Source of the DNA: Octopus vulgaris
Taxonomy: Eukaryota
Length of the DNA: 64,000 bases
Assembly (NCBI GenBank): GCA_951406725.2
Contig: OX597823.1
Location: forward strand, 5,828,001-5,892,000
Reading direction: 5' to 3'
The notes below the pieces were generated by a model, which searched no databases, was not told the DNA's origin, and was given only the letters and a program-made list of their open reading frames with translations. The position numbers and the translations under genes are program-made. The first letter of the stretch is position 1, and every line of letters begins with the position of its first letter. Below, piece after piece: positions 47,601-50,600 of this stretch.

Positions 47601-50600
47601 GCTGACCTCGGCAGAATTTGAACTCACAATGTAGCGGTAGACGAAATGCCGCTAAGCATTTCACCCGGTGTGCTAACAATTCTGTCACCTCGCCACCTTA
47701 TATGTGTATATTAATAATATGAGGGCGCGTGGCTTAGTGGTTAGGGCATTCGGCTCATGATCGTAAGGTTGTGAGTTCGATTCCCGGCGACGCGTTGTGT
47801 CCTTGAGCAAGACACTTTATTTCACGTTGCTCCAGTCCACTCAGCTGGCAAAAATGAGTTGTACTTGTATTTCAAAGGGTCAGCCTTGTCACTCTCTGTG
47901 TCACGCTGATTATCCCCGAGAACTACGTTAAGGGTACACGTGTCTGTGGAATGCTCAGCCATTTGCACGTTAATTTCACGAGCAAGCTGTTCCGTTGATC
48001 GTATCAGCTGGGACCCTCGTCGTCGTAACCGGCAGAGTCTTTAAGAATTAATAATATATCTACCTAACTGTCTATATATTTCTATATACATATATCACTT
48101 TATCCACCAGACTATTGGATGTGGTTATACACCATTGGTCACAATGCACTTGTTTGTTATATTATATAGCCTTATTTGTCTTTGTTGTTCAGACCCATGA
48201 CACTATCCACTTTGAATTGTTTCTCTTGGCTTATTTGCATTTCATATATACACACACATAATCATATAGGAAGGATTCTCCCGTCAAAGATGAGGTATGA
48301 ATGTTCAGCTTCTGCTGAATGACCGGCACAAATGATTTGTTTATAGTGGTCAAACGCATGTGCTGCACATTAGCTCACTCTTTCCATCGACTCAACATTG
48401 CCTGAAGAGGCACAGTGTGTGCCACGCATCAGATATAGAAGGATCACAGGGCAATGTGAGATGAGGTGCCTTGCTCAAGAACACAATGCACTACCTCATC
48501 CAAGAATTGAAACCACAGTTTCATGATTGTGAGTGCAACACCCTAAACACTTGGCCATGCACACACACACACACACATATATATATATATATATATATAT
48601 ATATATATATATATATATATATATATATTCATAGGTAATGCACACACACACACACACACACATACACACATAGGTGTGTGTGTATAGATATACATTGAAT
48701 GGGTGTGTGTTTCGTATGTATATATTATATATAATATGTATATTATATGTGTGTATATTATATGTGTGTGTGTATATATTGGGTCATCCCATAAATAATG
48801 TGGTTTTTTTTATGCTTCTTTTATTTTGCAAAATTAAGATAAACAAATAGAAATATTATTTCTAGATCTCTCAAAGAAAGACATTGGGTAAAGTAAAGAC
48901 TATCTGCCAACATGATGTGGCTGTCCTGAAAGGGACGATGTTACAATTGTTTTAGCCCTAAGAAACATTGTTTCTAGCTGGCTATACGACACACTATCTG
49001 TGTCCTTATATTTTTGAACAGGGAGCTCAGCATTCCCATCAAGTGCAAAACGAGAACTGTGGACTAGTTTCTGGGTTATTGCCCTTTAGCAACACATATA
49101 TTCAAACAGTGAATTTAGCAATGCCATCTGGTCAAAGCAACTACTTTGGGTTGATAAAGGGCATTAACCCAGAAACTAGTCCACATATGTTGTTTTGCGC
49201 TTGATGGGAATGCTGAGCTCCCTGTTCAAAAATATAAGGACACAGATAGTGTGTTGTATAGCCAGCTAGAAACAATGTTTCTTGGGGCTAAAACAACAGT
49301 AACGTCGTCCTTTTCAGGACAGCCACATTATGTTGGCAAATAGCCTTTAAGATAAACAAAGTTCTTTTTTAATCTAAAATATACTCTCCTTCATTTTTTA
49401 CAATGCTGGTAGAGTTGCAAGCCTCCTCTTCCAAAATTCACTTGTCCGTGAGGGAAAATACTCCTCCAGTACTGTTCTGACCTCATCTACAGAATTCATA
49501 TTTTTTCCATCCAAATGATTTTGAAGACTGGGGAATAAATGATAATCACATGGGGCAATGTCCGGTGAATATGGGGGAGGGGGCATCGTTTCCCATTCAA
49601 ACTGTTCCAGCCTCTGGAATGTCATCCTCGTTGTATGTGGCTGAGCATTATCCTGATGGAAGAACAGCTTTTTTGTCTTGAAATAAAAGTCAGTTGTTTT
49701 TCTTCTAGTGCTGACTTAAGCCAGGTGTATACCATATACTTAATTAAATATATATATATATAGATATACATACATACATACATATTGATATATATATATA
49801 TATATATTACACACAACTCATGTTGGCATGGAAAGCATACATAAATGATAGTAATGATGCGAATAAAAAATTTATGTCTTTCTCTCTCTATTTCACAGTC
49901 TGATGTCATTGGTGGATTGGTCAGTCTGCTGGAATTATGGTGTGACCAGAATAAAATATTTACCATCTCCTCGGTAAGTTCCAGATTGGTTGCAGAGTTT
50001 TGTTTTCTCATATTGTTATTTGAGTTTGTTCTTCACAATCTGTTCTAGAGATTCAGATGCTGTCCCTCCTCCAACGCCACCCACCCCCACTGTCTTCCTC
50101 CTCCTCCTCATTGTTGTGGTTGTTATCATCATCACCAACATCACACACATACATTCATGCATGCATGTACACACACACACACACCAAAATTGACAGACAC
50201 ACATACACATGTGCTACTGACTTGTGTGCGCGCACACACACACACACATTCATAGAAGACTGGAAACTGTGTGGAAGCCTGTGGGAGGAATGTTTCCTGT
50301 TCTGTTGGTGCTTGGCTTAACAATATCATCACCACCACCACCACTTCTTCCTGGTTGTTGGGTGCTTTCAGCAGAAACCATTCTGTTTCAATCATTTGGA
50401 CCAAATCTTCAGTCTGAGGATAATTTCCCTCCCTCCCTCCTATCCCCCTCCTTCTTTCTATGCCCCTCCCCTTCTTGCTTACTTCTGCCATTCCTTCTCT
50501 TCCATTTCTCTCTCCTCTTTCCATTCCCCTTCTTTCCTCCTTTCCTCACCCATCCATTCCTGCCATTCGTTCATTCCTCCCTCCCTCCTCCCTCATCTAG

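Follow-up and report, generated by a model that had tools for sequence, protein, structure and literature searches.

A fold-back insertion of a non-coding hammerhead repeat in an octopus mariner remnant, with the geometry of Penelope-like elements

A 499-nt inverted insert within an Octopus vulgaris mariner remnant is best explained overall, with a probability that we put at roughly 0.75, as two truncated copies of a non-coding unit that were mobilised in trans by the enzyme of a Penelope-like element (PLE), one cDNA being made per strand. Judged from sequence, the insert comprises two head-to-head pieces of a unit of ~350 nt, and the repeat family to which it belongs is an animal non-LTR retrozyme; that the insert is such a retrozyme using PLE machinery is very likely. 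The fold-back is a common insertion form of both families studied here (A and B) and is not peculiar to this locus. The insertion bears on the mechanism behind the inverted, one-tailed insertions of PLEs and on the identity of the enzyme that moves animal retrozymes. It lies in known mariner sequence and not in TA repeats, and each of its junctions is therefore readable at single-base resolution. In addition, the retrozyme copies share their genome with young PLEs that carry long ORFs, and subfamily A tests whether spread needs ribozyme activity.

The insertion site and the structure of the insert

The 14-mer TTAAGATAAACAAA occurs exactly twice in the window (the whole 64-kb stretch of DNA that was analysed), on the plus strand at 48834–48847 and 49347–49360, and the duplication cannot be extended. 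The left target half, at 48779–48847 on the minus strand, is a mariner 3′ end made up of the 3′ untranslated part and, as read from its letters, the terminal repeat after TA; it is 91–94% identical to three uninterrupted copies (L031–L033). The right half, at 49361–49715 on the minus strand, encodes the transposase C terminus at 49398–49715 in the list of ORFs and matches Mos1 in a search of PDB sequences (E 3e-18), while Pfam gave no name for the mariner piece at this flank. An exact 32-nt pattern for the empty site, with a single 14-mer, is present at three other places in the 2.8-Gb genome and nowhere in the reversed control, and these three mariner copies match both flanks of the insert at 84–94% identity. 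The empty sites and the pair of 14-mers in mariner together establish the 499-nt stretch as a genuine insertion with target duplication. An earlier note, made from the letters of this DNA, had described an insert of ~500 bp splitting a mariner with a 14-bp repeat on either side, and that description holds: mariner did not already contain both 14-mers. The 3 nt at either end of the duplication also fit the element's own end (the family has TTT at the left junction and TTA at the right), which means that the part belonging to the target alone spans 8–14 bp and perhaps just 8 bp. A second, internally deleted mariner copy at 22959–23221 lies ~40 nt from the retrozyme insertion at 22.4 kb; it is 83% identical to the first and lacks the target site.

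The left arm of the insert occupies 48848–49096 on the minus strand and corresponds by BLAST to positions 81–335 of the natural unit L012, being 5′-truncated 4 nt upstream of the hammerhead core. The right arm, at 49097–49349 on the plus strand, corresponds to unit positions 30–284, and its final 3 nt lie within the duplication, just as the final 3 nt of the left 14-mer also fit the continuation of the element. The two arms meet head to head at 49095–49096, with an overlap of 2 nt. The insert is asymmetric, in that an optional 3′ tail of ~46 nt (48848–48893, minus strand), recognised from the clusters of 3′ ends in the family, is present on the left arm only, and 50 nt of 5′ sequence (49097–49146) are unique to the right arm. 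An ungapped alignment of the arms gives 186 identical nucleotides of 203 (91.6%), in agreement with the ~92% over 200 bp previously estimated by eye. As RNA, the whole insert is predicted to form a single extended hairpin (−348.9 kcal/mol, z −37.6). We also considered the helix I strands of the two arms as complementary halves of one design and rejected this, as the left arm is merely cut short at the centre and the family has a different helix I.

The surroundings of the insert include at least eight leucine-rich repeat (LRR)-coding segments on the plus strand, regularly spaced at ~14.6, 20.2, 33.9, 44.2, 49.9, 51.7, 55.8, and 58.4 kb, which belong to one large gene at 14570–58430 of the window; this gene may resemble the LAP/Erbin/Scribble type. 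Because LRR segments on the plus strand lie around it, the insert probably sits in an intron of this gene, ~550 nt before an acceptor at 49899. In the pre-mRNA it would form a double-stranded stem of ~200 bp and bury the one sense hammerhead. A degenerate match to U2 snRNA at 57065–57261 on the plus strand scores 59.3 bits, above the Rfam gathering score, and is probably a pseudogene or chimera, since its 3′ part continues into a dispersed repeat.

A repeat family with a conserved hammerhead motif

Genome searches returned at least 55 matches to the left arm (40 scored of 2244 candidates) and at least 103 to the 22.4-kb element (40 scored of 3693). The latter, at 22432–22919, represents the sister subfamily B: BLAST and arm mapping show a complete 354-nt unit with a partial tandem on its minus strand, and on its plus strand a tailed arm in inverted orientation. 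The arms of the insert are ~72% identical to this element (BLAST E 1e-12), and the reference units of the two subfamilies align with a shuffle z of 28; the earlier reading of the arms as homologous to the 22.4-kb element yet diverged, and of the insert as a second subfamily of the same retroelement inserted in mariner with a target duplication, is borne out by this homology and by the empty sites. The loci used below, 50 for subfamily A (the window, 28 similarity hits, and 21 non-duplicate pattern hits) and 29 for B (30 hits less one overlap), are best hits or pattern hits rather than a random sample.

The unit measures ~350 nt in subfamily A, as mapped on L012, and 354 nt in subfamily B; five natural monomers span 337–358 nt with a GC content of 0.35–0.44. 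Two same-strand cores are found in 3 of 109 loci scanned, spaced 340–358 nt apart. Units are joined end to start, with a gap of at most 45 nt and no ORF between, at 17 of 50 A loci and 25 of 29 B loci, and whole-unit tandems are present at L073, L077, and L146. At these unit joins of A and B loci we found no ORF for a reverse transcriptase (RT) with GIY-YIG bounded by the repeat, and among 28 A loci no upstream extension beyond the unit is common to the copies. Folding of monomer circles gives z scores of −4.1 and −5.4 for B and −1.8 to −2.9 for A (25 shuffles each). The 3′ ends of A copies are bimodal, with 21 of 79 near unit position 287 (bin 280–289) and 30 of 79 near position 336 (bin 330–339), and these two clusters define the optional tail of about 46–50 nt. 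TA-type repeats follow 34 of the 79 ends, a count that has no background control.

Subfamilies A and B are part of a wider set of at least four related subfamilies, mostly 63–75% identical to one another, whose type I hammerhead has a U3-A8 core, helices that covary, and a helix III that is palindromic. Further subfamilies of ~350 nt (L037–L039, L045–L048, L050–L054, L057–L059, and L061–L063) have helices of the types AGGG/CCCU with ACAUGU and GAGG/CCUC with ACCGGU or ACUAGU, the AGGG/CCCU type being the most frequent among the first 100 matches listed. Another hammerhead-like family with UUGAUAA has a U-rich/A-rich helix II (L036, L040, L041, L043, L044, L049, L056, and L060), clusters at G000:C1:132.32–132.52 Mb, and includes several copies ~22 kb apart; as its 3′ end is ~75% like the pLTR end of the young PLE described below, this family may represent the pLTR of a further, third group of PLEs. 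Our literature search found nothing on the present retrozyme family, although the supplements of PMC4209133, PMC7229834, and the preprint cited below may list its motifs.

The pattern TTGATAA-N10-18-GAAAC-NN-GTC matches the genome 1595 times, compared with 75 times for the reversed control; copies that bear the motif number at least 1,500 in this genome and fall into several subfamilies. We aligned 24 hammerheads, from 17 of 30 pattern loci, the three window copies, and four A loci (nine further pattern loci have another spacer length and four are near-duplicates). In this alignment 89.7% of cells are paired, against 73.6% in shuffles and 28–43% in slid controls, and in 22 of 24 rows the loop of helix III is its own complement (UA, AU, or CG). 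Double-sided changes occur in 6/6 helix I pairs and 3/4 helix II pairs, though the 24 rows represent only four or five lineages and so hold few independent covariation events; the hammerhead core was fixed by the search pattern, while the covarying positions were free. The core is also kept among copies selected by similarity, UUGAUAA being intact in 22 of the 25 that cover it. The earlier note took retention of UUGAUAA as an argument for selection on the ribozyme. Selection between subfamilies does find support, but from helix covariation and not from core retention by itself.

The picture within subfamily A is one of a weakened ribozyme. Among its 35 pattern matches, 29 have an A·A mismatch at 10.1–11.1, the base of helix II, and only nine have G at the third helix II position. 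As both defects are so common, the source copies already had a weak helix II, and subfamily A spread with the A·A mismatch in place. Insertion by a lizard PLE in vitro does not need hammerhead cleavage, according to PMC11167929, and the spread of subfamily A with a damaged ribozyme fits this independence.

The two window hammerheads are further decayed. The right one, at 49151–49181 on the plus strand, has the U3-A8 core UUGAUAA, helix II AGGG/CCCA with A·A at its base, and a palindromic ACUAGU helix III; it ends in GUC with a nominal cut after 49181, just as the earlier note had placed core, cut, and palindrome. The left remnant, at 49058–49096 on the minus strand, carries the UUGCUAA that had also been reported, located at 49092–49086, in which A6 is changed to C; its helix I is reduced to 4 bp, and comparison with the family predicts it to be dead. 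The A6-to-C change is private (25 A and one C among the copies). Two private changes in the right copy are predicted to favour a rival hairpin, and its helices are predicted to pair with a probability of 0.0 within the complete insert and of no more than 0.04 when the motif is folded by itself. Both hammerheads are thus predicted to be inactive, and because they lie on opposite strands each transcript contains a single sense motif. On these grounds (one sense copy per transcript, A6C with a 4-bp helix I on the left, and helices predicted to be unpaired on the right) we reject an active dimeric hammerhead here, and the "double hammerhead" of the earlier reading is not a functional one; taken by itself, this copy is most probably an inactive relic. 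Rfam gave only sub-threshold, hairpin-type miRNA matches over the insert, and the hammerhead family is absent among the best 150 of its 212 window matches.

Insertion geometry, priming of the arms, and candidate helper elements

All 35 adjacent inverted pairs (20 A, 15 B) have their 3′ ends pointing outward. Nine of them have a non-canonical end; of the remaining 26, with both ends canonical, 24 have exactly one tailed arm (binomial 5e-6 if the arms were independent), or 23 of 25 if a pair with a B arm of only 19 bp is excluded, and A pairs L146 and L151 may reflect internal self-similarity of the unit. From this one-tail rule we infer one start site per strand, with the two coupled. The tail-less arm extends further 5′ in 18 of the 24 one-tail pairs, the window included and often by more than 100 nt, so in these pairs neither arm is a plain copy of the other; in six the tailed arm is the longer. 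Central breakpoints vary from locus to locus, and 30 of 50 A loci lack an inverted arm next to them. By exact match, a clean duplication at the junctions could be recognised outside simple repeats in two of 14 A pairs (the window and L141). Many other A pairs sit in TA runs, which together with decay hamper an exact-match search.

Two independent priming events have a somewhat better than even chance of having made the arms of the insert, a reading favoured because each arm holds sequence that is absent from the other. Source loci would give rise to multimeric or circular RNA, to be cleaved into monomers by hammerheads acting as dimers, and the PLE protein would nick both strands of an AT-rich target 8–14 bp apart. 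The 3′ end of the top strand would then prime at the end of the tail and that of the bottom strand at the tail-less site, each through a 3-nt match; both cDNAs would halt early and be joined at the 2-nt overlap, and the copy would later have decayed by ~4% per arm. A PLE protein has been reported to nick and extend both strands in vitro and to begin synthesis at either of two positions that flank the tail (PMC11167929). Our literature search found nothing on two-strand priming. Two-strand priming predicts, in a directly testable way, both the one-tail rule and arms whose sequences exclude one another.

The main rival to two primings is a single priming, followed by fold-back of the cDNA or by self-primed antisense RNA, as proposed in PMC3846280, with the resulting palindrome resolved at the tail boundary and its tip partly lost. 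We regard this as possible and on balance unlikely. The two arms of the insert do descend from one source lineage, as a single priming would have it: their p-distance of 0.088 compares with a between-locus mean of 0.149 (5th percentile 0.090), and four minority states are common to both. Inverted B arms likewise have rare variants in common at 0.0062 per site, against 0.0006 for unrelated copies. Over all A pairs the similarity is weak (0.137 versus 0.149), and gene conversion between arms could add to it. Loss of the tip is known for long palindromes, and the six pairs in which the tailed arm is the longer also sit well with a single priming. However, each of the 18 pairs in which the tail-less arm reaches further 5′ would require an extra deletion, and the insert described here has primer-like 3-nt matches at both of its outer junctions.

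More tentatively, with a chance somewhat below even, the insertions may be genomic footprints of two-ended target-primed reverse transcription, in which a PLE dimer assigns one start site to each strand of the target, the template is a protein-free retrozyme RNA without detectable homology to its helper, and one subfamily has spread with a crippled ribozyme. If true, this would explain the inverted, one-tailed structure of PLEs and would be evidence, at the level of mechanism, for the use of PLE enzymes by animal retrozymes.

A search for PLE ORFs, started from a PLE remnant beside one copy and scoring 150 of 14470 candidates, yielded a young family at 10 loci, with frames of 746–782 aa that include RT and a weak GIY-YIG match. 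Nine of the 10 carry a hammerhead of the form UUGACAA...GAAACCGGUU (U3-A8, palindromic helix III). The tail of these PLEs is 46 nt long, their flanks are (TA)n, and all four resolvable loci show the inverted form with a single tail; the retrozyme insertions match such intact PLEs of the same genome in geometry. The loci L124–L133, for example L126 at G000:C9:2165500–2175499, are very young, with arms 99.8% identical and a CxxxxCxxC-type linker, and constitute a candidate active element. An older family (L095–L123) has ~80–90% amino acid identity among its best copies, and a pattern search of its pLTR region found no canonical hammerhead. Local alignment with shuffles and blastn detected no homology between four subfamily units and the pLTRs of these two PLE families (z ≤2.3), and nhmmer matches in 44 PLE loci (30 + 14, partly overlapping) either lie beyond the mapped pLTRs or have the reverse orientation. 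Among these 44 PLE-ORF loci of two families, no PLE sharing the sequence of the unit was found. A PLE remnant beside L015 and an A-like unit beside L107 were rejected as partners, being in opposite orientation with other sequence between, and look like chance neighbours.

It is improbable that the arms are instead 5′-truncated pLTR stumps of an autonomous PLE outside the sampled families, with no separate non-autonomous element. The equal geometry of intact PLEs would be expected of such stumps, most PLE-type hammerheads are described as solo truncated ends in PMC4209133, and the homology comparison covered two PLE families only. Copies that read past the tail, however, re-enter the start of the unit with no ORF (17/50 and 25/29 loci), whole-unit tandems exist, and the 28 A loci have no common extension upstream. 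Less credible still is that the fold-back is itself mobile, a MITE-like element or a working pair of ribozymes that is copied in its entirety, which long inverted arms and a duplication superficially resemble, but with which the varying central breakpoints, the 30 A loci without an adjacent inverted arm, and opposite-stranded, mutated ribozymes predicted to be unfolded all disagree. A MITE or fold-back DNA transposon was rejected on similar grounds, namely variable centres and arm lengths, many single-arm copies, and no fixed termini.

Comparison with known systems

Animal non-LTR retrozymes are described as non-coding units of 150–450 nt (350–390 nt in mussel) with one type I hammerhead and a GC content below 50%, occurring as tandem joins and many monomers with a target duplication of more than 4 bp (Cervera and de la Peña, 2020, PMC7229834; bioRxiv 10.64898/2026.07.22.740005). 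The octopus family shares with them a unit of ~350 nt, a GC content of 0.35–0.44, a single type I hammerhead, ORF-free tandem joins, many monomers, and a target duplication that exceeds 4 bp. It differs in having a U3-A8 core, in ranging, among the copies seen, from monomers to short partial tandems with inverted arms, and in the broken helix II base of subfamily A.

The hammerhead itself is close to those of PLEs, for which PMC4209133 describes a U3-A8 core and a small palindromic helix III thought to act as dimers. As in the Cercyon PLE of Schistosoma (Cervera and de la Peña, 2014, PMC4209133), U3-A8 replaces C3-G8, and the palindromic helix III, as in PLE hammerheads generally, implies dimeric folding. 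In contrast to the Cercyon and PLE forms described there, the octopus motif has a 4-bp helix II, no extra nucleotide, and an extended helix I, which bring it nearer to the canonical type I. At the conserved pair G10.1-C11.1, sister subfamilies have A-U, G-C, or G-U, and subfamily A has A·A.

The fold-back form has already been published for PLEs, whose insertions are reported with an inverted copy, a tail at one end, and duplications of 8–10 bp (Arkhipova et al., 2013, PMC3846280; Craig et al., 2021, PMC8557442). The octopus insertions resemble those of EN+ PLEs, as described in these two papers and by Frangieh et al. (2024, PMC11167929), in their partial tandems, their head-to-head, inverted, and 5′-truncated copy, their optional tail, usually at one end, a short target duplication, 14 bp long in the present insert, their AT or (TA)n targets, and the position of the hammerhead near the 3′ end. 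They are unlike them in having no ORF, a tail of ~46–50 nt rather than the 30–40 bp given in those reports, and no perfect central palindrome. Animal retrozymes have been argued to be non-autonomous derivatives of PLEs on the basis of co-occurrence and pLTR homology (Li, Clavereau, and Pollet, 2026, bioRxiv 10.64898/2026.07.22.740005). Here pLTR homology is absent, but the footprint of insertion matches that of the PLEs.
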